Source: Amoebophrya sp. A120 (taxonomy: Eukaryota > Protista > Dinoflagellata). Taken from it: DNA of 64,000 nucleotides. Position numbers and translations under genes: made by a program. Within the stretch, counting starts at the first letter, position 1. Every line of letters starts with the position of its first letter. The stretch covers positions 6,373,207 to 6,437,206 of the forward strand of contig CAJINV010000005.1 in the NCBI GenBank assembly GCA_905178155.1, read 5' to 3'. This document shows positions 1,123-48,940 of the stretch, in pieces. The notes under the pieces were generated by a model. It was not told where the DNA came from. It saw only the letters and a list, made by a program, of their open reading frames with translations, and did not search any database.

Positions 1123-4100
1123 CTAGGCCCACCCTTCTACTTCACCAACATGGCCATCGCTCTCCCGTAGAAGCAACTCCGCCTTTTCCACGTCCCCTCC
1201 TGATCTGCGCAAAGCTTCGAGCATTCTCCCCCGATCGGTGAAGCCCCTTTTCAGTAAAGCTTCCACCTCGCGTGCCCACCACGAGACCAAAGGTCGCTGC
1301 TGTGCGGACGGGGCGGAGGAGGAAGGTGCTTGTGCCCGCCGGTAGTCGCGCCCGACCGGTTCCGCTTTTGAAGAGGCAGATGCAGAACGACCAGATCTAC
1401 CTTTCTGTTTCCGAACGACCCTCCGGGGCAGTTCCAGTTTCTGCACCGATATGGAGCCGCCACGAGTTGTAGAAGCTTTTTCCAGGAGCACGCTGGCGGG
1501 TGGATGAGTCCTCGAAGTAAAAGATCTCGATCTACTCTTATTTTTGCCAGGTTTTTTCACCCTCCGGAGCAGACCTACTCCCGGACTCGGTCCAGGACAG
1601 GTGCCGGCGTCATACTTGCGACCATCTTCCTCGCTGCTGTCGCACATGTCGGCCCACTTGTCTTCATTTGCAGTCTGCCGAAGCTCCTGTACCTCCCATA
1701 CAGTTCGAAAGAGGTCGGGCGCCCCCGGCTCATCAGCTTGTCGCTTTTGTAATTTTGGTCGTGACCTCGCGACGGCCGGATCATGGACCGCGTCGACGTG
1801 CTGGTCGGAGTAGTAGAAGCCGGTGCTGCTGGTAGAAGTTCTCATCTTGCCTCTGTCGTTTCCGCCCTCGCTGCCCTCCTGCGGATCCTCGAGAGCCGAA
1901 CCTGCCAAGCAGAGCGGCGGCTGGTAATAGCCCTCACGGAAAAACGCGGCAACGTCTTCCTTGTTCCATCTCCGTTCGCACTGTCGTTTGAAAACCTCGT
2001 CCGGCGTTAGCCCTTTCTGCCGCATCTTTTTCAGGATTCCCGACAGCGTCGCCGGCTCCACCAGTCGGTCGCGGACGCTGTGCGCCACGGCAAGCAGCCA
2101 GTAAACCCCCTTATCCGGGTGCAACTTTTCCGCTTCCAGCGTTTCGTCCACCAATCGTTCCGCTTTCTCCACGTCGCCCGCTTTCGCATGACACCCCAGG
2201 AGCATGGTGTACGTGATCAGGTCAGGCTGCACCCCTTCTCGCTTCATTTCCTCCACCAGTGCCTGTGCCTGCACCGATGTGTCCACTGTCGCTCCCGCGT
2301 AGGCAGACATCAGTGTGTTGTACGTGACCAGGTCGCGGTTAACTTTTTTATCCGCTTTCATCCTCTCCATAATCTCTTCCGCGCCCTGAAACCACGTCTC
2401 CTGGTCGTTCTTGTGGGCGTGCATGAGGATCGCGTAGGTGAAGCCATTGGGGGCGATTTTGTTTTGCGGCATATCCACCTCAAAGACCCGATATGCGGCG
2501 GATGTATCGCCCCCCCCTGCGTAGGTATGGATTGCAAAAATGTCTGGGTCTGGAAGCTTCTAAACTTGTAATGCTGTCTCTGGATTTTAAAAGAATGTGT
2601 ATTGCATGACCAGCAAGAGCACTCCAGTTTGTGCTACGCGGAGAGGGCATTTCTGATGCGGTAGAGGCATCACAAACTCCTCTAAAAATATGTGATGCTA
2701 GGGCACGCATCACAGACATCATGGGCCATGCAAAATATGCATGACAAACCTGGCAATCTTCCAGACCCAGACATTTTTGCAGTTGATAGTAGGCGCGCAT
2801 GAGCAAATTGTAGAGGAAAACGTCGGGGGCGAGGCCATCCTTGGTCCCGATCTCGTCGAACACCGCTTGCGCGCCCTCAGCGTCCCCCCGGGCCGCGTGC
2901 ATTTTCAGCAGGATAGTATACGCGCGAAGGTCCGGCCGCACCAGGCGCCGCATTCGGTCGACCGCGGCTCTCGCACCTTGCAGTAGACTATACGCTTGCA
3001 TTTCTATTTCCGCCACCGGCTTGTCGTCCTCCACCTGCTTCCCGCGACTACGACGGCAGACAGCGTTTAGTACCTTATGCCCCCTGATGACCTCCTCCGC
3101 ATTGTTGATATTGTTGGCATAAGCATGCAGTAGCGTTCTGAGCGTGATCGCGTCCGGCTCTACACCCGTACCAACCATGTCATGCACCACCTTCTCCGCG
3201 CGCTCGACGTCGCCGGCACTGCTATGGGCCTTCAGCAGCGTTGTGTAGGTGGCAGCGTCCGGTTTCAAGCCCTCACCCTGCAGTTCCTCCAACACGCGCT
3301 CCGCACCCGCGGCGTCGCCGGCATTGCTGTGCGCCTTCATTAGCGTCGTGTAATGTGTGGTGGCCGGCTGGAACCAAGGCCTACGCTTCATGTTTTGCAG
3401 GACTCGCTCCGCACCGGCGGCGTTGCCGGCCTCGGCGTAATATCCTGAGTAAAAACGTACCCACACCAGAGTCAGGATGGGGATTTTGCAACACAAACCT
3501 AGGAGTTTTGTGAGTCACGCATCACAAGTTGCACTATGCAGTGTAGTGCAGGTTAGCAAGTGCAGCCGCGTCACAGATTCATCTGCTCATCCTGTTCACA
3601 GCATCACAAATTCCAAAACACGATTGGAAATGGCTCTCATGGGGATGCGCATTACAAGTCTTCCTGTCTTTGCAAATCTGCATTACAACTCTGGTGTGGG
3701 TACGTTTTTACTCAGGATACGTAAGCCTCCAAAAGCGTTCTGTACGTGGACAGCAGAAATCTGCGGGAGAAGTCGTCCCCCTTTATTTCATTATCCACTG
3801 CAAATATGTCTGGGTGTGGAAAGTTGGAACTCGCAATGCTAGCTTTCCATTGCTAGGATTAGGAAATCTGTATTGCATATATAACCAACAAAAGCCGCAG
3901 CCTCTTTTGTCATCCGAAAACGCAGTGTCTCATGCGGGGTTCCTATCCGAAAGCGCTCTGGAAAGTTGTCATGCTGGGCTGCATCCGGAACTGTTTCCAT
4001 CATACACATTTTCGCATCACAAATTTCCAGACCCAGACATAGACATATTTGCAATTCATATTTATCTTGTGTCAACAACTCCGGGTCGTGCGGCTCGATT

Positions 4101-20700: not shown

Positions 20701-23587
20701 GAGGCCGAGTGTCGTGCGTGAAATTCGTCTTTCAGCTTGGAAAATCCTGCGCAAAAGTATCGTATTCGTATAAATGCAAGTCTTGCATTTTACAAATCTT
20801 TGTCTTAAGGCAAATCTGCATTACAAATTTTATTTATCACGCTGGGGAAATTTGTAATGCATTTATACGAGTACAATGCTTTTGCATTGCATATGGCAGC
20901 TCTACTTGTTTCCTCGGACGTCGTTGGCGCCGTGGGGTTGCTGTTCATCTTGCGGCCTTCCTGATCTTCTGTGCGCGGAGGTTGCTCCTCATGATCGTGA
21001 AACTCTACCATGGAGCGCATGCTGCGATCTGGCAGAGAGTCTATCAAATGTAAAAATGTCTGGGTCTGGAAGAATGCAACTTGTGATGCTGCATTTGGAT
21101 TCCAGAAAAATCTGCATTGCATGAGTACCAAAAGGAATGCAATTTTTGCTACGCGGAGAGGGCATTTGTCACGCGGAATAGGCATCAAGAAACTCTCAAA
21201 CAATCTGTGATGCTAGGGCATCCATCACAGACATCAGGGCTCATGCATAACGTGCATGACAAGTGTCAGAATCTTCCAGACCCAGACATTTTTACATTTG
21301 ATAGAGTCTTCCTCTTCCCCATTTTCCGATGAAAAATCGACGTGCGACGACAATACGTCAGTTCTTGTGCCGCCGGGCTTTTTGTCGACAGCCTGCGGCC
21401 CACGACGGTCGTCGTATTTGTGTCTTACTCTCTCCCGTTCAGCTTCGATCTTCGGATCATATCCTGAGTAAAAACGTCCCCACACCATAGTCAAGATGGG
21501 GAATCGGCAAGACAAATCCACAAGTTTTGGCTGTTTTGCATGACAAATTTGCATTCGTAGTGTAATGCTGTTTGAGCTAGCTCAGCAGCATCACAGATCT
21601 AGCATACCATGCTGATTGGAGCATGACAAATTGCAAAACACGATTAGAAAATGCTTCTCATGGGGCTCCGCATGAGAAACATTTTCAGCATGCAGATTTG
21701 CATTACATCGGACAAAAGCCGACACAACAGCGTAAATGGCCCCAGATCCGTGATCACAAAATGCACAAGGAAGAGAAAGCAAGAGAACACAAATAGGAAC
21801 GAAGGAAAACAAGCACAAAAGAAAAATGCCAAAGGTCTGAAAATTTGAAGGAAGCGAAAGAATTAGAGCAACAAAGAAAAAGTGAAAACATAGCACGAAA
21901 GCGAAACGAAGTGGACACTGCCTCGAGCTCTTCACCTCACCACAGGCTTCACATTCGCCGCACATTGATGGGCTCAGTAGAAATATTGGGTTTAGGCTAG
22001 CGCTCAAGGCGAGGAAGAAAAGAATTTTTTTCGAGAAGACCAAAACCGCAACAAGGAAATGCGCAATGAACGCAAGCGCAAAGCGCCTTTTTTTCGTGTG
22101 AAGATGTAGCTGTTCCGAGTACAACTTATTACAATTTAGTATTTCTCCTTTTCTATTAGTTGTAGCGCTAGCTCCTATAGACTGCGAGTATACTTAACAG
22201 ACAACTGCCCCGGGAGTTGAAGAAGGAGAACCAACTCGATGGAGCAGGTGCGTCGTCCGCCTAGATTTCGCCAAAAGCAAAGCAGCACGAAAGACTACGA
22301 AACGAAATGGCGCAGCTGGGCCGTTGGGCGAAAAATAGCACAGACAGAGAAGCCCGGAAGCCCGCAGCGCCAGAAAAATTTGAGCCGCAACGAAAGAAAA
22401 GACCAAGCGAAACGACGGGCCAGGAGCATGCACCGGCCTAGGGCGCCCCTAGGGGTGCATTGACCGCGCGCACGTGGTCCCCACTACATGCCACCGGGGG
22501 AGCGAAGACAAGGCAACAGCAACCGAGGCGAGGAAGACGCCTATTGCCCTACACACGAGACTCAGCACCACGAAGAAGACAGGAAAGTCGAGCACGAAGG
22601 CAATGGGGGTTCTGCAGTCTGAAATACAGACGCAGCACCGGAAGAGAGGCTGTAGAACCGAGGAGGCAACGATAGTGAGAAGTAAAATAGTGTAGATAGT
22701 ACTATTTGAGTTGCTTGACGATCGCGGACTGGGGTCTTTTTTCATTACATCGGCAAAAGCCGACACAACAGCGTAAATGGCCCCAGATCCGTGATCACAA
22801 AATGCACAAGGAAGAGAAAGCAAGAGAACACAAATAGGAACGAAGGAAAACAAGCACAAAAGAAAAATGCCAAAGGTCTGAAAATTTGAAGGAAGCGAAA
22901 GAATTAGAGCAACAAAGAAAAAGTGAAAACATAGCACGAAAGCGAAACGAAGTGGACACTGCCTCGAGCTCTTCACCTCACCACAGGCTTCACATTCGCC
23001 GCACATTGATGGGCTCAGTAGAAATATTGGGTTTAGGCTAGCGCTCAAGGCGAGGAAGAAAAGAATTTTTTTCGAGAAGACCAAAACCGCAACAAGGAAA
23101 TGCGCAATGAACGCAAGCGCAAAGCGCCTTTTTTTCGTGTGAAGATGTAGCTGTTCCGAGTACAACTTATTACAACTATGGGCTGGGGACGTTTTCCAAT
23201 AGGATAGATCAAGCTCTTCGGTCATCATGCGGTCCATGGCTCGGTAAAATGGGTTCTTGCTGTCCTTCTCGTCCCGCCTCGAATCGTCAAAGGCGGGTCG
23301 GTTTTTAATGGGAGAAATAAAAGCCCGACCACCATCGCCCTCCAGCTGTGCGCCCGGCTCCTGTTGAGTATGAAACGCAAAAGCATCGTCCTAGTCAAAA
23401 TCGCATGACAAATTCCCTCACCATGAAAAATGAAATTTGTAATGCAAATATCGGCTAAGCAGGAGATTTGTTGTAATGCATGACAGCGATTTTTACTACG
23501 AGTACGGAACTTTTGCACAGGATATTGAGGCTCACCGTGCAGTTCATCCTCGACAAGCGACGCCCGGTGCACGGCGATCTGGTCCAT
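14772..23587 (-). CDS. Large disordered protein with C-terminal MORN repeats; 13 exons, 12 introner introns
   Basis: MORN-like motifs YYGLWRNGRKEGPG, YVGQHANNKRNGFG, YVGEFLHDKMHGFG, FEGIFEQGRRHGRG. All 12 junctions translate in frame after element+TSD removal; ATG 23587 (MDQIAV), TAA 14772. Confidence 0.83.
14905..15175. mobile_element. Introner family A
   Basis: Family A TIRs; TSD TCGAC; frame restored. Confidence 0.9.
15471..15779. mobile_element. Introner family G (long ~55-bp TIR)
   Basis: TIR TATGGAAGCGTCAGGTTTGAAATCGCCAAAGTTGAAATGATTTGTCATGCATAAAA and near-complement at the right end; TSD GCGGA; frame restored (MSSA|HLVF). Confidence 0.9.
16245..16507. mobile_element. Introner family A
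   Basis: Family A TIRs; TSD GCCGG/GCCGC; frame restored. Confidence 0.9.
16758..16902. mobile_element. Introner family F (short, 145 bp)
   Basis: TIR TATGCAGTGATAAAGGATCGCACTCGTAT / ATACGAGTGCGATGCTTTTGCAATGCATA; TSD TCGTT/TCATT; frame restored. Confidence 0.88.
17120..17508. mobile_element. Degenerate, expanded family A introner
   Basis: Decayed A-type TIRs with insertions; TSD diverged (ATGTC/TCGAC) but element+5 nt removal restores frame. Confidence 0.7.
17866..18175. mobile_element. Introner family C
   Basis: Family C TIRs; TSD CCTGG; frame restored. Confidence 0.92.
18239..18493. mobile_element. Introner family A
   Basis: Family A TIRs (left end CAT variant); TSD CAGAG; frame restored. 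Confidence 0.9.
20099..20360. mobile_element. Introner family A
   Basis: Family A TIRs (left end TGT variant); TSD AGCCG; frame restored. Confidence 0.9.
20743..20893. mobile_element. Introner family F
   Basis: Family F TIRs (left end AAT variant); TSD TGGAA/TGGCA; frame restored. Confidence 0.85.
21042..21303. mobile_element. Introner family A
   Basis: Family A TIRs; TSD GAGTC; frame restored. Confidence 0.93.
21460..23206. mobile_element. Introner family B enlarged to 1.75 kb by a nested insertion
   Basis: B TIRs at 21460 and ~23178-23206; TSD GATCA; frame restored (EELD|PKIE). Confidence 0.9.
21701..23175 (-). mobile_element. Non-autonomous LTR-like (TRIM-like) element nested in an introner
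   Basis: Near-identical direct repeats 21701-22134 and 22743-23175 (one 1-bp indel seen) around ~610 bp with no recognisable coding domain; purine tract AGAAAAGGAGAAA on the minus strand just before the downstream repeat. Confidence 0.8.
23369..23524. mobile_element. Introner family F
   Basis: F-type TIRs; TSD TTGAG; frame restored. Confidence 0.87.
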
Positions 23588-29359: not shown

Positions 29360-30273
29360 TCAGCCCTCTTGCGGGGTCGTCTGATGGTCAAAATACGTTT
29401 CCGGTACTGAATAATTCACCAGAAAGTTATTTTCGTTTAGAAAAAATCTGTACTCCTCGTCATAGAACCCGCCCATGCTGCTCGCATCAGAACCTCCCGG
29501 CCCGTTGAAGTTAAGCAAATTCAAAAGCCTGAGCCGCAATTCCAATAGAGTCGCTTGCGATTTGTCTCGCAATTTCTTTTCCGACGGCGCTTCTGCGACA
29601 GGTGGGCGAAGGTCAGCGGGGGACTTTTGCTTGTAATACATTTCGCACATTTCTTCCATGTTGTTTCCGGTTAAGGCGATCGCAAAAATTTTGTCCTGGT
29701 CGTAGCCATTAACACTCGTCGGGCCTGTAGGCTGTTTTGTACAAAAATATTTGAAAAAATCGCGCGCCCACAGCGTTTCAACTCCTTGGGCAACAGAGTT
29801 AAACGGGCGCCGGTACTGGTTCGGGAACAAGCCCGTAAGCCGGTTTTTTGGGAGGAAGCTGCTAACCTTGCTGCTGCCTTTCGTGGTCGTGTGCACTTGC
29901 GGCGAGACCGCAAAATCTTCCCAATCCGCGTCGACCCACTTTTGTAGCTCCCGGAAAACCAAGGCGCCGAAAGATGGGTCCTTCCAGTCAATTCTCCAGC
30001 TGTCCCAACCAGTCGCCTTCACATTGTTTAACGCTAGGTCTTCTTGCTCACAGTGTGGAGCGATTTCCTCCTGCACTTTTAGTGGCAGGAATCGAAAAAC
30101 ATCCAGCCGCTTGAACATGTCGTAGTAGCTAAATACAGCCTGCCACTCAGTGGCCTTCCTGATTTCTGCCGCCCCGCTCAGGATCGCCTTCTGCAACATC
30201 TGATCACACACACTCGCGAGGCTTCGAACCTTCTTGTCGGTGTACAAGATAGCGCACTTGTCTTGCAGGTTCT
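29360..30273 (-). CDS. Exon encoding the last Cys-patterned repeat module (ENLQDKC...FRFLPLKVQ...HC) plus C-terminal tail
   Basis: ORF 29360-30319; motif shared with upstream modules. Confidence 0.65.
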
Positions 30274-32099
30274 CGGGTGCAAGGAAAATAGGCCCCACAC
30301 CGCACACCCCCATCGCCACTCCATGATAATCGTGCGGGCGCGCCCTATTCTAGCACACCCAAGCCCGTGGCCCACTCGGGGCTGAGAGGGCGGCCAACCA
30401 AATTCAGAACGCACCGCCCCGCCGCCCCCCTAAAAAATGAGAAGAGCACCCACAGCAAAAGACGCGCAGACAAAGGAAAACCAAACCTGTCAGAAAAAGA
30501 TAAGGAGGCGCCCTGCCTGTGAATGGCGAATCCCCAAAGGGCTGCGGTGCTTAGTTATGGGCCTACCGGGAGCCGATGCCACCTAGCGAACAAGACGCAA
30601 AAACAAAAGCAGCCACGGCAGCTTGTGCGCACGTGCTAGATGGCGGGCAAACTGCGAGCGCGCCCGCGCAAATCCCCCCGCGGCGGCCGTAAATGAATAC
30701 CAATAGTAGCCGCCAAGGCGAGGGTAATGAGGTCACGCCGGTTTTGTTGAGTGGCGGAGGGGCTGCCCCTCCGCCACCGGGGCAGGAGGGCGAGTGCGCC
30801 GACTTAGGGCCCCCTGTGTCTCCCTTGGCCCGCCCGACTAGGTAGATACGCACGGCCGCGCGGCCCTTTTCCAATCGCCCCCCGCGCGCCAACCCGCGGG
30901 CGTGGCGTCTGAATCTTAGTGGGAAACTAACACGACACACGGCGGGGCCACGACGACCAGTTGGCCACCCCTACTTTGACTAGCGCGGCGGGGCGTCTCT
31001 GCCGGGCTTGGGGTCATGCAGGTGCAAAACCCTCGCCAAAATGATTCCGCAACCCTGCCTGCCGGCACGACGGAGGCGGCCCGGTGTAAAGCCCACACCC
31101 ACCATCCAAGGCCCCGCGGCGTGGCGGGTTCGAAAACCCCGAGGCGCCGAGCCCCACCCGGGGCAATGCGCTTGCCTCCGAACACTACGCGCAGGGGCGG
31201 CCGGGGAGGCTTGCGGTGGTTGCGCGCGTCGTGGCGCGTGTCGCTCGCCCAAGGGAGGGCCGGCCGGCGCGGCAGATGGGGCGCCCGCCTTTGCGGCGTC
31301 AATACCCGTTGCCGTGCAATGGGAGAGAAGCCTGGCTGCCAGCGTTTGAAGAACTGCCAGCGCAAGAACACGATCGGCGCAAAATAGAATGCGCCACGAA
31401 GGGCCACCTGGCGTCGCATCCGATGTAGCAGCAGGCGCCAGCCTGCGGGCTGTTTGGTTTTGACTTTGGCGCCACGACTGTTTCTCGGGCGCACTCCTTG
31501 GCCACAACTTCTTGACCGTGCGCGCAGTTTTTGGAAAAGGCATCACAGCCGCCATCGCGCAGAAACCTTGACGGCCTTCTTTCTACATGGCCCAGGCCTG
31601 CGCCTGGACCTGAGAAGCCAATGGCGCGCGCCCTCGTCAGAATCAAAACCGTGCCGGACCGACGGGGGCCTGCTTTGGTAAGCTGCGGCCCCTGGCCAAT
31701 GTGAGAAAGGGCGCCGCGCCCCTGTTGCGCCGCCTCGCAATGCGCCGGAGCTTGCCGGCCGAAGGAACGAAAAAGCAATGCGAGCGCAAGCTTTTTTGAT
31801 AATGCTGAAGAAAAAGGCAACACTATCAGGCGCGCCTGGAGCGAAAAAAGAAAACCGGCCTTGTCCTGACTCACTGGCCTGCCACGACAGCGCGTGGCCC
31901 CTGTCATTGACTTAGGCAAGGCCGCGAAGCATTTGCCCCAAGCAGGCGCGGAAGCGCACCCGGTCTGCATACTGGATCCGAAAAAAAGTTCAATGCGGGC
32001 GCGAAACAAAGCACCGAAGGCGCCCTTGGTGCGTCGATAGCAAGGCGATAGCGATAGCGGTATCGGGACGGGGTGGGGCGCTCTTGTTCCGCGTCCTAT

Positions 32100-32634
32100 C
32101 CTTCCGAAGCGGGTCGCCGCCTCGACTTTTTCTTCGTGGAACACGAGCTCGTGGCCGCCCGGGCTCTCGCGAAGCTGCTCCCCGCACCACTCGCCCAACC
32201 CAGAGCTGTCCCTTTTCATTTGCAAGACGAATGCTTCGACCGCCTTCGGATAAACTTCATCCGGGGCCGCCTTACTCGCGAGGCTCACCACCGGTTCGTC
32301 GCCGCTCTGCATCTCAAAGACACTGCGACCGAGAGACGCGAGTTGAGACCGCAACAATGCGTCGAACGTCACCGGCATCCCCGAAGCAATGGCCGCGCGT
32401 GTGCAATGTCTGCTAAGGAGCCCCTGCGTTTCTTCCGGGAGTAGTCGAAACGCCTTGAGACGCGCCTGCGCTTTCTTCGTGGATTCGGCGTCTCGTTCGG
32501 CATGCCTTCGCTCCAACTCTTGGTCCAGCCGGTCATTGCATTCGCTCGCCTGCTCCACCAGATCCCTTGCCAGAGCGGGGTCAAGTGCTTTCTTGCCAAG
32601 ATAGACAAGCTTGCACTTTTCTTCGAGATTTTCA
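32100..32634 (-). CDS. Exon encoding a Cys-patterned repeat module (ENLEEKC...FRLLPEETQ...HC...WC)
   Basis: 5' part of ORF 31299-32657; similarity stops at RFG. Confidence 0.65.
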
Positions 32635-35218
32635 TATCGAGGGGAGATCAGCTGCATAACACAGAGGGCCCCGGTACATGGTCACACGGCTACGCATGCA
32701 ACATCGGGAAACAGGATCGCCCAAGCCATGACCCCACGAAACCCTGCCTTCCAAGAAGCAGGCGGCTAAGCCAGGCATGAAAGGACCTGCGCTCCGCCGC
32801 TTCCTAACTTAGCCAGCGAGCGCACCGTCGCGGCGATCAAAGATGGGAAATCGCGGGAAACTTTCGGCACTGTTACCCGCCCACCGGCTCCCACTGCGGG
32901 CGTACCCCACTACACCAGGGTCGCGAAGCTGCTGCGCGATGCATGCGCAACTATCGCGTGCGAAGCACTGAAGAAGCCAAGCGCCCTTAATGGCAAAAAG
33001 AAAGCCGAAAGGGAAAGCGCGGCCGCCTCTATATCCATGAAAGAAAAGAAATGGCCCCGCGGCCGCATATTGGGCGCAAGGGTATCCCAGCGAAGAGCGC
33101 TAGCATATGCATGCATGGCGCGGGCGGGTGCCATGTGCGCCCAGGCGTGCGACAATACAAAGCGGTCTACCGCCAACAGAATCGCAGACCACAAAGCCGC
33201 GCCCCCTTGCGGGACGCAGAACGAAATACCCCTGGCGCCTACGATAGGGCCCACCGCCCCCCTCTCTGCGCCGGGCGCTTAGCCCGGGAGCAGGGCCGCC
33301 CTGCTGCCTGATACCGGGCGCAGAGGCATTGCGTACGCCACACATTCAGAATCTGCAATGCTGGGCCCCGCTTTCCAGGCCTCGCGGGCCATGAAAATGA
33401 ATGCCGCGCAGCAAGCAGATGCACTGCTCGACGGAGACCTAGACGCGCTCGCGGCTGATAGCAATGCAGAGGCGCCAATGGCAGCAGAGCGGGGGGCGGG
33501 GGCGGAGATGAGAAGCCGAGGCCCCGCTCCTTCAACTTGCTGCAACTATGTTTCCACCAAGAAAAAAAGCCTGCGGCGCCGAGGCACTACCCGGAGGGAA
33601 AGCGAACAAAACTGGGCCCCGGTGGCCGCATAAGCGTTGCGCAGCATCTTCCCCCGCATATTTTCCCGAAGTCAATAGCCAAAGCAACCTGGCTCGCTGC
33701 AGGAATCTGGCCCCGCCCTTTCGCGGAAGCCATACCAAGGACAATCACGACGAAAACACGCCCCACGCCCCGTAGAGGATGCCCAACAAAGAAGACGCCC
33801 CGAAAACAAGGGCCGGCCTGGGCGGGCAAAAGGCGCAACCGCGGGGGCGGTTGGCGAATTGCAAAAAACCACACGCACAGCGAGGCCGCAGTCGCGGCCG
33901 GACGCAAGGTCAACGCGTCAAAGCAGACAACGCTCCCCGCGGGCCAGTGCCATGGGGCCAATGAAGCGCGGCCGCCGCGCAGCTGGCGCAACTGGAGATC
34001 CCACATGACCTCGCCGAAGCGTTCGCGCCCCCGCCATTTTCGCTTCCGGAGACGGCGGCGGCGCGGTTCGATATCTGGGCGCGCGGCGCGCTTTTGGTTG
34101 CCCTGCGCGCCCGCGCCGGCGCGGCGGGGCCGCCTGCTTGGGTGGCCGGTTGCTGGCCGACCGCCGCATCGCACCCGGAGGGCGATCGGTTGGGGGGACG
34201 GAGGGGGGCGGGCCGGCCCTCCGTCAGCGGAAGTTATAGGGCCGGCCCGCGCGTCGCCCCTCCCAAATACAATCCGCCGCCGGGGCGGGGGTAGTGAGGC
34301 CGCCGCCGTTTTCTTGCGCCTTGGCTCGCTGCGGGCCCACCGCGGCGCCTTGGGTAACGTTATGCAACCGCGGCTGCCCCAGTGCCACCGCTGCTTTTGG
34401 CACATTCCGGCGCCCCTCTCCGAAACCCTGTCCCGGCGCTTCGGGGCCGACCCGGGAGCCGCGGGAGGCGTCCCAACAACGAAGGGAAAAGGGGCCAGTA
34501 GATTACGAGGGCATTTCTTTTATTTCCGCTCGGCCAGCTTTCGAGGATGCATTTTTTCCGGGGCTCTGTGACCAGCACCGCGAAAGGTAAGGCAGCCGCC
34601 TTTGCGGCCGCCAAAAATGTCCCGAACACGAGGACACGCCGCGCGGTTTCGCCTACGTAGCAACCCTTGCGCGCGGTTTTTCCTGGCACTCGTTTGGGCG
34701 CCCCAAAGATCCAGGCAGGGCCCCCGGCGGCAGGCGCCTCCGAACGAGCCGCCTTTGCCGGCCCGCCACCGTTGGTCTTTGGGGCGTTGGAGGATGGGGC
34801 GCCGCCGTGCTTCGTTGATCAGTCACAGAGCCAAACAGGCTGGGTAGCTTGATAGGCTTTTTCCCAAGTCAGCAGACGCGCCCTAGAGCCAAAAACTGCC
34901 GGCTGTTTTCGGGGCACCATGTCAAGCAGGCTCCCGCGCTGGGGTTGTTCGTTGGCCGCAATACATGCCACGCGGCCGGACCACTAAAGGCAGCAACAAC
35001 ACGCAGGCCCCCCGCCCTTTGCGATGCCTTGCGCCGGGAGCGCGAACTGGGCTGGCCCCTGCGCCTAGCTAAGCGAAATCGGGGGACGCGGCCGCGCCCG
35101 CGACTCTGCTTGGTCGGCCAGTGTTCATAACCTGCGCAGAGGGCCCGCGCGGGTGCTTTCAAAACGGGTGGGGGGCTGGCTCTCCAGGCCGGGTGGTATG
35201 GGGCGTGTTTTCGACATA

Positions 35219-36672
35219 ACGCCGACGCTGGGCCTGCAAAAGTTTTTGAACTGCACTCCGCCCCCCTCGAGAAGCTTCTCAAGCAATGCCAGAATGGGCG
35301 CGAGGCCCCCGCCTGCTGCCGCCCGCGCCTTCCCGACACTCTCGGCACCGGCGTCGAAGCTTTCGGCGACTGTGGTGCGAGCGTGTTCTTTCAAAGCGTG
35401 GTCAAAGCCGCTTCCGAGACGGCCGCTGACACCGCTCGAGCATGAGCTGGCGAGGTCCGCCTGTTTTTTCAGCGGAAGGAAGTTGAACAACGCGACGCGC
35501 GCCTGCGCTTCCGGATCTGTGGCTTTGTGCTCGGCAACATCCTCCAGGAGGTCGCGACATTCCGCTGCCCGTGCCCCCAAGTCCCCCGGGGCGGCCGGTT
35601 CCAGCGCTTCGCGGCCGTATGCCCTTTTGCATATGTCTTCCAGATTTAATCCGACCCTAATGGCTCCGTCCATTTTGGCCAAGAACGCATCGCGGCTGGG
35701 CTCGCGTTGGAAGTCCTCCGCGCCCACACGCAATCTGCACCAACTTTCGGCCACGTCGCTCTGCAGGCCTCGCGTGAGGGCGCCCTCCATCTGCCCGTAG
35801 GTCATATCAGATCGATAATGTGGGCCAGGAAGAGCGTCCGGGAGCTCGTTCTTCGTTAACGCGGTCACTGCCTTCTTCAGCATTTTGTCCAGATTCTCAG
35901 GCGTGTCGCAATGCTTTTTCAGACCTGCTTGGAATTCCACTGGCAAGAGCCGAAACACCCGGAGGCGTGCTACGGCCTCCTCCTTCATGATCGCCTCCGC
36001 TTCGTTGGCGAGAGCCAGGACTTGTGTGTGCGACATTTCGGCATCTCTCATCACGGCATCTGTTAGCTTTTCTGGGGCAGCAGTTCCTTCTCCATACACA
36101 ATTTTGCACTTCTCCTCGAGGTTCTTTGCGAATTCCATAGCGGAGGTGACCTTGTCCTCCTGGTGCACGAGTTTGGCCTCGAGTCCCAGCGCATGGCGTC
36201 TGCACCAATTTTCAAGGTCGTGGACGCCGTCCAGAAGCGCGGTGAGGAACTCGTTGATCTGCGCAAATTTCTTGTCTACGACCGATGCTCCTTGTAGGAA
36301 TAGCCGAAGTCGTTCATGGCCATTCATCAAATTTGTTTGATCACTAACCCAGTCCTCAAGCGCCTTTTTTAATGTGTCTTCGAACCCCTTTTTCTTGCCG
36401 GTTGCAGTCAGATCAAAACTCCTGGTGGAGCCGCAATTTGTTGACGTGGCCACCCGTGACTGAACCTCTAGCGGTAGAAATCGAAATACGAGGAGGCGCC
36501 CTTTCGTTTCTTCGATCTCACCCGGTTTGCTGTAGTCAACATTTTTTCGCAAAGCCTCGTCACACTTCATGGCGACTCTCTGAGATTCTTTAACAGGGGC
36601 TTTGCTCGTGTCTTCTGTGTCAGAGGCTGTTCTGTCACCGTAAACAAATTCGCATTTTTCCCGCAGATTCTC
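35219..36672 (-). CDS. Exon encoding three tandem Cys-patterned repeat modules
   Basis: ORF 35125-36807: ENLREKC/KNLEEKC/LNLEDIC, each followed by F(R/N)(F/L)LP and spaced Cys. Confidence 0.7.
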
Positions 36673-37857
36673 CTGTCGCAAGGAAAAACGTTGCACACCA
36701 CACACGCGCGTGCCATCTTCAAGCCACATGCTTCTTCTCGTCTCCCTGCACACTGACTGTAGCTGGACTACTTTCATTGATCTCCAGCTGACAGTGCCTG
36801 AGCCCATTCAAGAACTGCAAATCGCTTTCTTTGTCTTCATCAACAAGCTTCCTCGTTCTTTAACCGACGTCATCATCATCTTTCTAGCGGGGGGGGGGGT
36901 GCTAGGGGTTTTAGGACGTGTTCGAATTCCGCCTGTTCCAGCATCGGATGTAAGGGTAGTGCAGGATGCTGAGATCAAGATTTCTAATTTCGGTCACTCG
37001 TCACATCATCGTGGGTAGAGGAAAGTAGCCGCGCAGAGACATTGTATTGCTGTCATCCGGCGCGTGCTGATGTGCCTCCTGGACCTCGCACTGCAGCCGC
37101 TGGAGGCGTGCAATGCACAGATGTTGATGCTAATTGTATGTAGCCACTGCAAGCGTGCATGCCAGCCTTTTCTTCCCATAATAAACACTACCTGCATATT
37201 TTTGTAGTCGAGAAGGAAGTCGGAAACTTCTATTAAAATTTCACATGCAAATTTTTACGTGACTAGAGCTAGACGTGGTTGATGTGCAACATTATTCTCT
37301 CGATATCTTCCCGTCCTTGAGAGCGGCAGGGACTTCAAGCGGCTTGTACTTAAGTTCTACAACGTCCTTCATTATCAAGTCGAAAGCATTTCCAATGACC
37401 AACACAACAAAAACACAACCCAGGTAACCGTGAATATCGACAGGGAAACGCAGACGCGTAAGAAGCTCTGAGCCATCTACAACTTGGCTTCATCTCATAA
37501 AACCATACTCCTCCTCTGTGTTCTGCGGGAACTCGGACGCGAACCGGCAGTGCGGTGCCTCCGGCAAACAAATGCAAACAATGCTTTACTCCTTGCTTCA
37601 CACACGCATGCCATAGAAAAAAACTCAGGCTCGCTGACTGAGTAGAGCATGACACTAGGAGGAAAAATCTTTCGCGCAATTCGTACACGACACGAAATAA
37701 GGCATCTAAATCAACCCAATGGGCAGTACAGCACAAAGGACATTAGTCCTGCGGGCACCACACGCACAGCTGTGATGTAAGGCCAGAGACGACACACCTC
37801 CGCGATAAGTGTGTTGCTTTTTCTTCAGGTGCTCGTATTGGAAAATGTTTTCGACAT

Positions 37858-38427
37858 GATATTGCCCATTTCGGTACGGCACACGTCTTGGAAGCCATAT
37901 TGCCGATTCAGAATCAACGAAAGCTCTTTGGCGATTGTTTGGGAGTTGAACATTGGCTCCGTTTCCGTTATGATTTCGTCCCAGCTCCATTTGGATTTCC
38001 GCACATTGTTGAACTTGTTTTCCCAAGACGCATTCGTGACCATCGCCAGAGTTAACTTTTTTTTCTTTGCCCAATCCCTGAGCTTTACTTTCATCGCGAC
38101 GTCGAATTTTTTTGCAGATGGCGCTAATTTGTTGCTTGTCATGTACGGGCTGTCACAATATTCGGTCGCGAGGTCTGCCTGTATTTCCAGTGGCAGAAAC
38201 CGAAACGTATTCCGGTCCGCTGTTTCCTTTTCAAGGATCGCGCCGTAATTATTCGGCTCCGCAATCCTTTGCTGCAACTGATCCTCGCAGCGCGCGGCCT
38301 TGCTTTTCCGGTCGTCTTCGGTCTTCTTGTCTTGTTGCATTTTTTGGTCCGCTGCGACACGTTTCTTCTCCTCTTGATCCCGTTGCTTCTGCGCCTTTTG
38401 TTCGTCGGTTAGTCTAAATCCCTCAAC
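37858..38427 (-). CDS. Exon encoding a coiled segment and a repeat module (FRFLPLEIQADLATEYC)
   Basis: ORF 37825-38430. Confidence 0.65.
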
Positions 38428-38654
38428 CATACTGGAGAAAAAGAGGTCATCGCCACCACCCTTTTGCAGCTATTTCCTTCAAAATTAAGTCCATTGCCTG
38501 CGGTGGCGCAAGACGAATTCCAGAAAACTCTGATAAATCTCCGTGCAGTTATCTTCCCCACGACGAGATACGTTATTTTTGCGCCAGCAGCATCAAAACA
38601 TGTTACTTATAAACTACAATTTGAATGCACCAAGGCTGCAGATAGTGGCGCTCG

Positions 38655-45014: not shown

Positions 45015-48001
45015 TTATAGAAGGGTGACATACGTTGTTGGCCCGACGGTGGTGTCGTGGGATTCGTTTTTCCGCCCCCGTCTTCGCAACCGTTGCAACG
45101 CATTTATCGTGACGAAAAACCCACCCTCCCCATATTGAAAACGATCCGTCTGAAAATTTGCGATGCAGATTCGTGACCACAGATCCTGTCGGTCTTGCAG
45201 GAAGGCAAAGCCACAGAGTCCGCCGCATTATGCAGGCGGTTTGTGATGCTGTTGGGCTTACAGCATAGACATTTATTGCCATGCTCGTCGCCTACGTCAA
45301 AACCTCTCGACTCAGGCATGGAATATGCCTGCAGTCCTCTCCAGCAAGACAGACCGGATTTGTGTACGCAAATCCCGCATAAGAAACTTCGTTTCGATAT
45401 GGGGAGGGGGGATTTTTCACTTTGATAGCATTTGAGATGCCGCTTCCGGGGCGCCGTGGCGCTCCTCCTCCAGCTCGGGCAGATCTTCGCTGGGCTTGGT
45501 CTATCAAGAGGAAAAATCCCCCCTCCCCACACTGAAAAGGTATATTGTTGGAAATTTGTGATGCTGATTCGTGGTCACAAATCGTGTCTGTCTTGCAAGA
45601 AGGCAAACCCAAAAGGCCCCCACGCATTATGCGGCCGGTTTGTGATGCTGTTGGGCCTACAGCATGGACTTTTGTCATGCTGAGCGCCTAGACCAAAACC
45701 CTTCCACTCCGGCTTGGTATGGGCCTGCAGTCCTTCACTGCAAGACAAATCTGATTTGTGTACGCAAATCCAGCATCACAAATGTCCTTCTCGATACGGG
45801 GAGGGGGGCTTTTTCCTTTTGATATGGTCTCCAAGAACTTCGTCGGCTTGGAGGTTGCCACGTGGCCAGGATGAAGATTGGCGGTGCCGTATCCTGAGTA
45901 AAAACGTCCCCACCCCATAGTTGTTATGCCAAAGGAATTGCAGCACACTTTGCCCCCCCTCTGCCCCAGGCCGCAGATGGCTTGACACGCAGGGGGGGTA
46001 GGTCAGGCGGACACCGAAGTGCCATCACCCCATAGTTGTTATGCAGATCTGCAAGCAAAAGAGCATTTGTAATGCGCATCCCAATGAGAGGCATTTCCCA
46101 TCGTGTTTTGGAAGTTGCAATGCTGTCAACAGGATAAGGAGATGGATTTGCTATGCGGCTTCCCTTGCTAAAATGAATTACACTACAGCCTGCAGTTTGT
46201 CATGCGTGGCTCCCAAAACTTTCAGGCTTGTGTTGCAAAATACCCATCTTGACTCTGGGGTGGGGACGTTTTTACAAATGATATGTCGTGCTGGTGGCCG
46301 GGTTCGGACGTGCTGGCATCGTCGTGGGCCACCGCTGCGCATCAAAAGCAAAAGTGTCTGGGTCTGGAAACTTGTGATGCTGGGTGGCGTATCATGAGGA
46401 GGCCACAAGTGCTGGCTCAGCATGACAAGTTTCTGAGCTTGCTTCTAGGTGTTGCCTACAATTCTGCATGACAAACTGCGTGTCTGCATGACAGAAAAAT
46501 GGGGCTGTTGGGTAATGTGCATGACAAAGTCAAGAGTCATGTGAGACTAGCATGACAAACTTGCATTCTTCCAGACCCAGGTACTACGTTTGCATTTGAT
46601 ACTGCGGGGATGGCTTCGTCCGGAGTCACGGTGGCCGCCGGACGCTATCCCTTGTAAAAACGTCCCCACGACGACCCCGTCGTCACGTTGGGACCTCTGC
46701 AACACAAATCCAGAAGTTTGAGGTGTCACGCATGACAAGTTTCTCGCTGTATTGTAGTTCAGTTTAGCAAGGACATTCGCATCACAAAGCCATCTCCTTA
46801 TCCTGTTTACAGCATTACAAGTCCCAGAACACGACTGCAAGTGCCTCTCATGGGGACGCGCGCATTACAAACGCTCGGTTCCTGTAATTGCAAGTCTGCA
46901 TGAAAAACATAGGGGTCGTGCGGACTTTTTTTACTCGGGATAGACGCTTCTTCTTCTTCTTCCTGGAAGACGAAGAGGGCTTGTTCCGGCGGGGAGTGGT
47001 GGAGAAGCCCGCAGGCGTCCACAGGTCGTCAATGGCAGGAGGGGCCTCGCTGCCACGGTCTATCCTGTGCAAAAACGTCCCCACCGCCCGCCCTAGAGTC
47101 CTCAAGATGTTGCTGGGAATTTCGCTACGCAAATCAACAAGTTATGGCTGCTGTGCATGACAAGCTGGGGGCTGTAATGGCCTCCTGATGTTGTTTTAGG
47201 TAGTGCAACTGCAACATGACGAATCAAGTGCCTCATCCTCATTCCAGCATGACAAACTCCCGGTCTACATTAGAAAACGTCGGTTTTCATGTGGCTAAGC
47301 ATGAGAAACATTTTAAGAATGTAGATTTGCATCACAAATCCCAGGAGGTGAAGGAGAATTATGTGGGAACGTTTTTCAAAACGATACTGGCAAACCGCTT
47401 GTCATCGTCGTCGTCGTAAAAACCGAAGGAGTATGCATTGCAAATAATGTGTCTGGGTCGTCTGGAAGAATGCAAACTTGTCATGCTCTCTGTCAGTCAC
47501 ACAAAAATCTGTCTTGCGTGAACAGCAACACCAGACGAAGCAGGTGCTCTTTATTTGTGGCTACGCGGGCAAAAAGTTTCTCATGCAGCATACAGATTAT
47601 AGGCACAGAGACCTCATAAATTTGTGGCTTTCATAAAACCTGTGATGCTATGCTGTGCATTCAGAAGAACCTGTGTGAGGCAAACGGTGCATGACAAAGT
47701 CCGGATGTTTCCAGACCCAGACCTCGATATTTGCATTTGATAAGGGGTCGCCCTGCTCCATGAAGGAAGCTGCTCCTTTGCCCTTCCGCGCCGCCGCCCC
47801 CGAACTACCCGCACCGCGGCGCCGCGAGTTCCGAACGGCCTTGGCGGACCCCGACGCCCAGAAGAGCTGCCCGGTGCCCAGGAAATAGGCGCCGGGGAGT
47901 TGCAGCAGGTGCGCGATGGAACCCATCACAGACTTCTTGACGAGGACGTTCTTGAACATGGCCGATGCTGCTCCGTGCTGTCCTCCACCCCGAGGCACCA
48001 T
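45015..48001 (-). CDS. Hypothetical protein, 8 exons and 7 introners; paralog of the gene at 50835-52358
   Basis: All 7 junctions in frame: GDP|FGFYDDDDDKRFAS|GSEAPPAIDDLWTPAGFSTT...QM|RCNGC...TLL*; start ATG tentative. Confidence 0.8.
45105..45427. mobile_element. Introner family C
   Basis: TSD GCATT; frame restored. Confidence 0.92.
45502..45824. mobile_element. Introner family C
   Basis: TSD TGGTC; frame restored. Confidence 0.92.
45890..46283. mobile_element. Introner family B carrying a 96-bp insert
   Basis: TSD TGCCG/TGTCG; frame restored. Confidence 0.88.
45930..46025 (-). other. Structured 96-bp insert flanked by a 19-bp duplication
   Basis: CACCCCATAGTTGTTATGC at 45911-45929 and 46026-46044; hairpins inside. 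Confidence 0.75.
46340..46601. mobile_element. Introner family A
   Basis: Left end CAT variant; TSD CTGCG; frame restored. Confidence 0.9.
46646..46942. mobile_element. Introner family B
   Basis: TSD GACGC; frame restored. Confidence 0.9.
47061..47386. mobile_element. Aged family B introner
   Basis: TSD CGGTC/CTGGC; frame restored. Confidence 0.82.
47432..47742. mobile_element. Aged family A introner
   Basis: TSD AGGAG/AGGGG; frame restored. Confidence 0.85.
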
Positions 48002-48198
48002 TTTCGCGTCTCGCCCTCCGCGGCGAGAATGTACTACGAGTGGTCCCGGCAAAGATCAATTAGGGGATGATGAAGAAAAAAAAGTCCGCGCTGCCCCTTT
48101 TTATTCCACAACTCTACGTCTACGTCCCGGCTCCGAATTGCGTTACTCCACCTCGCGGTCTGCTCGTCCTTGTGGTGCTGAGACGACAGTACTGCGCG

Positions 48199-48940
48199 TT
48201 TTTCTCCTCTGTATTTACTCCTTGTGCTGGGAAACAGAAACTTCCCGAGCAGTTTTGCTCCTGGTGTAGTACTCCTTGTGCTGGGAAAGGATTATTTCCC
48301 GAGTTTTGCTCCTGGTGTAGTACTCCTTGTGCTGGGAAGGAAAGATTTCCCAAGGTCTGCTCCTCTGCGTGCTCCTTCTTGTGCTGGGAAAGAAAGATTT
48401 CCCGACTTTTGCTCCTCTGTATACTCCTTGTGCTGGGAAACAAAAATTTCCCGAGTTTTGCTCCTTTGTATGCTCCTTAAGCTGGGAAACAAAAACTTCC
48501 CGAGTTTTGCTCCTCGCTCGTCTGTGTGCTCCTTGTGCTGGGAAACTGAAATTTCCCGAGTTTTGCTCCTCTGTGTGTAGTTCCTTGTGCGGGAAAACAA
48601 AAATTTCCCGAGTTTTGCTCCTTTGTGTGCTCCTTAAGCTGAGAAACAAAAATTTCCCGAGCTTTGCTCCTTTGTATACTCCTCGTGCTGGGGAACTAAA
48701 AAGTTTCCCAAGTTAGTTTTGCTCCTCTGTCGTGTGCTCCTCGTGCTGGGAAACAAAAATTTCCCGAGTATTGCTCCTTTGTATCCTCCTTCAGCCGGAA
48801 AACAAAAATTTCCCGAGTTTATTTGCTCCTCGTTTGCTCCTTAAACCTGGAAACAGAAATTTCTCGAGTTTATTTGCTCCTCGTTTGTTCCTTAAGTAAC
48901 CCTGGGAAACAGAAATTTCCCGCCGAGTTTTGCTCCTTCT
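48199..48940. repeat. Minisatellite, ~14 copies of ~50 bp, each with a GGGAAA-N-TTTCCC inverted repeat
   Basis: Unit approx. TTTTGCTCCTCTGTGTACTCCTTGTGCTGGGAAACAAAAATTTCCCGAG. Confidence 0.92.

Follow-up and report, generated by a model that had tools for sequence, protein, structure and literature searches.

A 64,000-nt stretch of the genome of Amoebophrya sp. A120 (assembly GCA_905178155.1, contig CAJINV010000005.1, positions 6,373,207 to 6,437,206; hereafter the window) contains an introner enlarged by a 1,467-bp insert with two long direct repeats. A first-pass annotation had read this insert as a targeted non-autonomous long terminal repeat (LTR) element, a terminal-repeat retrotransposon in miniature (TRIM), or as the product of a tyrosine-recombinase-like integration. 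Our analysis leads elsewhere: the insert probably derives from the 3′ end of a Penelope-like element (PLE) as a partial tandem without coding capacity, placed by target-primed reverse transcription at an ATTACAA motif close to the right end of the introner and spliced out together with the intron. More tentatively, and at somewhat worse than an even chance, we suggest that Penelopes of the dinoflagellate line that lack hammerheads use an uncatalogued, permuted, twister-sister-like ribozyme, and that one Amoebophrya family has become a sequence-specific antisense parasite of introners that is harmless to the host gene.

The insert consists of an upstream repeat, A1 (21701–22134, 434 bp), a non-coding internal piece, I (22135–22742), and a downstream repeat, A2 (22743–23175, 433 bp); the sense strand of the element is the plus strand of the window, and the host gene runs on the opposite one. 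As the first-pass annotation had stated, the repeats are nearly identical, and in the window a single 1-nt indel separates them. They may truly differ at two places, given that at 22909 sequencing run X2 has T in place of the window's G and that a diverged third copy has T at the corresponding position. The hexamer ATTACA occurs at all four junctions (21702, 22128, 22744 and 23169), which bears out the earlier claim that the internal junctions carry the same core as the target, and its outermost copies form the target duplication (21702–21707 on the left, 23169–23174 on the right). The layout is that of a partial tandem with a shared 3′ end, in which A1 and then I–A2 end identically: A2 would be the 3′ end of the element, terminating at the introner ATTACAA, and A1 an upstream pseudo-LTR, likely a 5′-truncated copy of the same 3′ end, which meets the host at a 7-nt match, CATTACA.

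The insertion is real and recent. Empty-site contigs, in which the right end of the introner continues after 21707, occur in both X1 and X2 (84 and 81, respectively), which are DNA runs of the same single sample. One 700-nt contig (22105–22804, depth 45.6) covers I and both inner junctions, with an overlap of 30 letters of A1, where the tool's bar is 31, and 62 letters of A2; a second (23146–23506) bridges the right junction, and no contig among the matches listed bridges the left. A 175-nt contig from an estuary metagenome of another study (23031–23205, depth 3.3) also spans the right junction, with no differences. In X1 the depth of repeat contigs is about twice that of unique contigs (82 against 36–46), contig depth being a rough guide. 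With three of the four junctions bridged and the depth of the repeat doubled, we rejected an assembly artefact, and the duplication stands.

The window is eukaryotic DNA in which genes are interrupted by many 150–330-bp elements with inverted ends and 5-bp direct repeats, and such elements match the introners described in Amoebophrya (PMC7789003; comparisons with published systems here and below refer to the portions of the cited papers that were available). The host element, of a family that we call B, occupies 21460–23206 (1,747 bp); its terminal inverted repeat arms are 32 nt long and 78% complementary, GATCA direct repeats flank it at 21455–21459 and 23207–23211, and subtraction of the insert restores an ordinary introner of 280 bp. 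On the minus strand, the exon at 23207–23368 lies upstream of the enlarged intron and that at 21310–21454, whose far boundary is approximate, downstream. A 4,821-nt contig of run X5, which the search tool guesses to be RNA, joins 23207–23368 to letters identical to 21425–21454. The 1,752 nt absent from it are those of the introner with its insert plus a single 5-bp repeat, and the host frame stays open once these are removed, in agreement with the earlier claim of in-frame flanks. The insert is thus likely removed from the host mRNA with the enlarged intron, because this likely-RNA contig joins 21454 to 23207 in frame, and the earlier suggestion that spliced introners serve as safe havens is likely to that same extent. 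In its inverted repeats, its short direct repeat and its in-frame absence from that contig, the host element is an introner, and it resembles published Amoebophrya introners in these repeats and in being a non-canonical intron (PMC7789003, PMC12130899). The available portions of those papers do not describe nested, targeted retroelements of the kind found here.

The identity of the insert comes from a relative. A 22-mer from the repeat, used to scan metagenomes blind to flanking sequence, found nine loci on eight contigs, and at one of them, L006, a reverse transcriptase (RT) gene is followed by a region collinear with I plus A2 from the RT stop to the 3′ end. The alignment scores 296 (mean of 40 shuffles 74, maximum 102.5), and three of its seven sub-blocks, corresponding to a GC-rich hairpin, an RNA motif discussed below and the 3′ end, lie far above shuffles, the I/A boundary being marginal. 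The hairpin region (22409–22469, plus strand) is homologous to the part of L006 just past the RT stop codon, with a score of 67 where the best of 100 shuffles reached 28. The L006 open reading frame (ORF) has a weak RVT_1 match (E 0.0015) and 138 longer homologues. All eight homologues tested, chosen mostly by a precomputed GIY-YIG label, have GIY-YIG near the N-terminus, and five of the eight have RVT_1 further on. DKA and CxC motifs, which are Naiad diagnostics (PMC8557442), are present in all 20 homologues aligned of the 120 listed. The L006 contig begins inside the RT, leaving the N-terminus off the contig; its ORF ends 156 aa past the catalytic DD, as homologues do, with no C-terminal endonuclease. 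Judged by these motifs, the element likely belongs to the Naiad/Chlamys subclade. A PDB sequence search with the RT alignment gave no matches. The first-pass annotation had called for a search for longer copies encoding RT with an integrase or recombinase: an RT-bearing relative exists, and its RT is Penelope-like.

Elements of the Naiad/Chlamys clade form 5′-truncated partial tandems, or pseudo-LTRs, and one non-coding member, MRC1 of Chlamydomonas, was once filed as an LTR element (PMC8557442). The insert shares with these elements the pseudo-LTR partial tandem and, in its relatives, the N-terminal GIY-YIG, CxC and DK(A) motifs; the canonical hammerhead missing from most members is missing here too. 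The published targets of this clade are microsatellites and, for two endonuclease-less spike-moss families, 28S rDNA, whereas here the target is the motif of another transposon, and the main text of the same source reports no dinoflagellate members and no other ribozyme (PMC8557442). Since I shows no detectable RT remnant, either the copy is non-autonomous or truncation has occurred within its 3′ region.

The scanned 22-mer is half of a motif of about 60 nt that is predicted to fold as RNA and lies once in each pseudo-LTR. Copy 1 is at 21954–22013, with an invariant core at 21993–22007 and a predicted cut between 22005 and 22006; copy 2 is at 22995–23054, with a predicted cut at 23046/23047, 1,041 nt from the first. 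Both are on the plus strand, and a covariance model of the motif found no further copy in the window. Six distinct variants are available (the window, L006, L003/L005, L013, the L002 family and L004), all of which share the 15-nt core and a GCA. The partner half comes first in four variants and second in two, a circular permutation. Across 14 pairs and six variants, 84 of 84 cells are standard pairs, several with double changes. For the four variants of the same order, 98.4% of 63 cells pair and six pairs are changed on both sides; no shuffle of 500 reached their covariation score, and slid registers drop to 25–55% pairing. Three cautions apply to these figures: the structure was drawn from the same sequences, one stem was partly set by the scan pattern, and the number of sequences, four, is small. 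Single-sequence folding is no better than shuffles (z −0.25 to −1.69), and covariation is the one line of evidence that argues for the predicted fold. Weaker covariance hits, such as L016 at 37.7 bits, merely reflect the core used to fetch them.

No family in Rfam fits the motif, even in short windows. The insert, L004 and L006 contain no hammerhead core, and L002 has one stray match deep inside. Like the hammerheads of PLE pseudo-LTRs and retrozymes, the fold is a small structured RNA present once per terminal repeat, with non-autonomous derivatives; it also shares with them a palindromic mini-helix that may require a dimer, and it differs in lacking the CUGANGA/GAAA core, its own invariant core being another one (PMC4209133; bioRxiv 10.64898/2026.07.22.740005). 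The small helix is self-complementary in all five variants tested, which brings to mind helix III, likewise palindromic, of the dimeric hammerheads in PLEs (PMC4209133).

A closer likeness is to twister-sister-like ribozymes, whose catalytic loop sets G7 C8 U9 C10 A11 A12 opposite G36 C37 U38 A39 G40 and is cut between C10 and A11, twister-sister itself having A at position 38 (PMC11620745). The 15-nt core holds both strands of this loop exactly, as do 24 of 2,000,000 random 15-mers, in a comparison made after the fact. With the LINE-1 and OR4K15 ribozymes the motif shares an identical long strand (G7–A12), followed by a stem whose partner continues G-C-A, the five-nucleotide short strand and circular permutation; here, by contrast, the strands stand 1 nt apart in one invariant stretch, and there are two extra junction helices (PMC11620745). 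Both loop-strand sequences occur unchanged in 6/6 variants, in an arrangement unlike the published class. One reading keeps the published pairs: 22002–22007 would be the long strand, continuing into the covarying stem, GCA at 21960–21962 would take positions 36–38, and AG at 21994–21995 positions 39–40, which would close either a small hairpin or a duplex of two copies. The twister-sister covariance model of Rfam gave no match at E up to 10. In the literature searched, which lacked most subscription journals, we found no report of the core sequence, nor of a ribozyme of this kind in dinoflagellate PLEs.

We would put self-cleavage of the candidate fold at about an even chance, and the ribozyme in the pseudo-LTRs, if it is one, is possibly dimer-dependent. 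Nearly as probable is that the fold is non-catalytic, serving as a protein-binding or dimerisation signal such as an RT loading site. The missing Rfam ribozyme match would fit such a signal, and with strands 1 nt apart the two-stem loop cannot form in its published shape. Folding does not single out a model: the four-way model comes out 8 kcal/mol above the predicted minimum (−11.3 against −19.1 kcal/mol), and a dimer prediction pairs the other palindrome of the core. Short inserts at two further loci, L007 and L008, moreover stop 5–8 nt beyond the predicted cut. What speaks against a mere binding signal is the existence of two circular permutations, an invariant core that holds both strands of a catalytic loop, and the position of the fold in the pseudo-LTRs, which is that of the hammerhead.

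The fold recurs in elements of several kinds. At L005 it is part of an insert of 187 nt that starts with a full spliced leader and is flanked by a 7–8-bp duplication; L003 carries a relative of this insert with an AG acceptor instead of the leader. Both (L005, minus strand, about 1011–1212; L003, 406–1070) are mini-elements with little beyond the RNA fold, located at the introner motif; L005 would be a retrozyme-like passenger, and L003 resembles an unspliced version of it. The L002 family has the motif ahead of an ORF of 1,118 aa, in a 5,105-nt tandem unit; a GIY-YIG-like N-terminus, DK and RT motifs can be made out in this ORF by eye, and no Pfam match fits it. A profile comparison of the L006 and L002 RT families was weak (probability 23%, E 0.0009, 414 columns). 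A further contig of the L002 family (C642 of genome G001) has an intact GIY-YIG/RT frame of 1,094 aa with the motif on either side, in the hammerhead's place. L002 (1662–5015, minus strand) and L027 belong to a GIY-YIG/RT family of about 1,070 aa (six matches) that has no Pfam label and lies in head-to-tail 5.1-kb units; one copy, found in a bacterial genome bin, is likely a contaminant. L007 (3077–3119) and L008 (2904–2961) carry only the first half of the motif: they are L002-type fragments of 43–58 nt that end inside the fold, beside unrelated eukaryotic genes, and may mark the start of reverse transcription. L004, a unit of 2,885 nt whose overlapping ends point to a circle or a tandem, carries the permuted fold and gave no significant protein match. 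Viral scans returned no matches with an 18-mer and nine with a 15-mer, none of them with the partner strand. In prokaryote genomes a 17-mer gave eight matches; three have the partner strand (L011 and L012, on one contig, and L013, which the strict pattern missed and a relaxed one found), and the other five were dropped as chance. We infer that these two contigs are eukaryotic contaminants; the genome with L013 gave no PLE protein match.

Introners resembling those of the window surround three of the nine metagenomic loci (L003, L005 and L006), and all three inserts terminate at ATTACAA, with the right part of the introner in register: 109–118 nt remain beyond the motif, compared with 122 here. 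ATTACAA occurs in the window at about 2 per 10,000 positions, and the shared end letters of the three relatives and the window insert span two introner families and two different motif copies. This upholds the earlier proposal of a sequence-directed insertion into the introners' CATTACAA motif. An X5 contig joins a 22-nt piece of A, through 91 other letters, to a B-type right end. Across the window, GCATnACAA or its complement occurs 110 times, several times per introner, across families and never inside the insert; these clusters are likely a shared protein-binding site.

A serious rival for the origin of the nick, less probable than targeting by the element itself, accepts the same element and holds that the introner motif is a hot spot for nicks or breaks used by many retroelements and stray DNAs. 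A transposase cut or an extruded hairpin would be the cause, and the specificity would not be the element's own. A second B introner, at 46044–45911 on the minus strand, has an unrelated GC-rich insert of 96 bp, bounded by 19-bp direct duplications that likewise start at this motif, and the L006 contig starts inside the RT, so that any N-terminal endonuclease would lie off it; both are as a hot spot would have it. Weighing on the other side, the window insert and its three motif-bearing relatives share their end letters across two introner families and two motif copies, the duplications are short (6 bp for the window insert, 7–8 bp for L005), as after a staggered endonuclease cut, and database relatives of the L006 RT carry GIY-YIG.

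For insertion by the element's own machinery we propose the following course. A nick at the introner motif would prime cDNA synthesis at the 3′ end of the element; the nicking enzyme would most likely be the GIY-YIG endonuclease of the element's own family, acting in trans. The RT would copy one unit, A2 and I, and then continue into the next unit upstream, on a tandem or circular RNA template, or jump template. Copying of A1 would stop at the 7-nt match with the left side of the target, and repair would leave the 6-bp duplication. The inner ATTACA core would then be a chance match that ended the upstream copy and not a recombination site, because L006 has no ATTACA at the I/A boundary, the position corresponding to 22744. 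The predicted fold would cut the element RNA at two C^A sites separated by 1,041 nt, the role proposed for hammerheads in other Penelope elements; the host pre-mRNA would escape cutting, because the element is antisense to the host gene.

Transfer by foreign machinery is improbable. The insert might be a Penelope-derived RNA copied in trans by an introner-targeting family of long interspersed elements (LINEs), a passenger like a short interspersed element; the spliced-leader-headed passenger at L005, with the same fold, would suit this, as would the fact that no coding master of the family was seen. It is countered by the missing poly(A) or simple-repeat tail, by the partial tandem, which is a Penelope habit, and by L006, where an RT is encoded in the element and the 3′ end falls on the same site. 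Least probable is the LTR or tyrosine-recombinase element, recombining at the ATTACA core, that was first proposed: its LTR-like geometry, near-identical repeats and core at all four junctions are set against a 3′ region homologous to that of a Penelope-type RT element lacking the inner core, the absence, as the first-pass annotation had itself observed, of a TG...CA pair (on either strand) and of TGG (after either repeat), a purine tract that is only antisense and 8 nt away, the lack of a split-repeat (A..B-A-B) layout, second repeat pair or terminal inverted repeats, and the spliced-leader-headed L005, which ends alike with no terminal repeat; copies of A without I do exist, as solo LTRs would. 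Since I and the repeat are one continuous 3′ region behind a Penelope-like RT in L006, the element is very probably of neither type, and its repeats are best read as pseudo-LTRs.

Several points weigh against a targeted, spliced Penelope insertion. The middle parts of I and of A align with L006 no better than shuffles, no relative of I was found at a likeness of at least 80% in run X1, and no coding master of the exact family was seen. At that threshold X1 does hold a 48-nt piece of A at depth 162, or about four copies, and one copy some 87% identical to A over 21752–22119, the right end of which is outside the available sequence; an exact metagenome scan with a 20-mer from the 3′ end of A gave no matches. 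The earlier expectation about where other copies insert holds for the three introner-bearing relatives. One related contig begins at the TTACATCGG point with which A1 and A2 also begin, and its left flank is foreign and does not look like an introner; a defined left end, an insertion away from the motif and a chance truncation would account for this equally well. The RNA nature of the X5 contig is a guess. Finally, in the one PLE tested in vitro, reverse transcription begins at an RNA site without homology to the cut DNA, and the preferred targets are AT-rich rather than fixed (PMC11167929).

Other features can be noted briefly. At 22142–22159 on the plus strand a pyrimidine tract followed by AG may be a trans-splice acceptor, and a comparable tract precedes the ORF in L002; of the polypurine tract noted earlier, the purines are present, on the strand opposite the element's sense strand. 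The insert contains no spliced leader, poly(A) signal or TATA motif. A minus-strand ORF of 313 aa (22449–23390) has no Pfam match and was taken as a by-product of composition, and the start of I was rejected as a tail copied from a C-type introner, 194 of 2,000 shuffles being equally good. Elsewhere in the window, the region 29360–38469 is GC-rich, has no introner matches and contains four minus-strand ORFs that share an RLxxFxxLP-like repeat by eye, with no Pfam match; 48198–48938 is a tandem array of about 13 copies of a 49–52-bp unit; and 1123–3514 (minus strand) is a PPR-repeat gene broken by introners.

In the literature searched we found no report of Penelope elements in introners. Tx1L of Xenopus is said to target a site inside the non-autonomous DNA transposon Tx1D, and so would likewise be a retroelement aimed inside such a transposon; reportedly it is a LINE of the APE type, whereas here the element is of the Penelope type and the target is a spliced intron. 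A Penelope-type element aimed at the motif of another transposon, in non-canonical introns, would be a new targeting niche for this group.

Members of the Naiad/Chlamys clade mostly lack the hammerheads of other Penelope elements (PMC8557442), which leaves the processing of their tandem RNAs open, and in two distant families the fold described here is found where other Penelope elements have a hammerhead. Should it prove active, twister-sister ribozymes would gain a new topology, one found in eukaryotic retroelements. If splicing is as we read it, the unexplained splicing of Amoebophrya tolerates an intron six-fold longer than usual, provided that its ends are kept.

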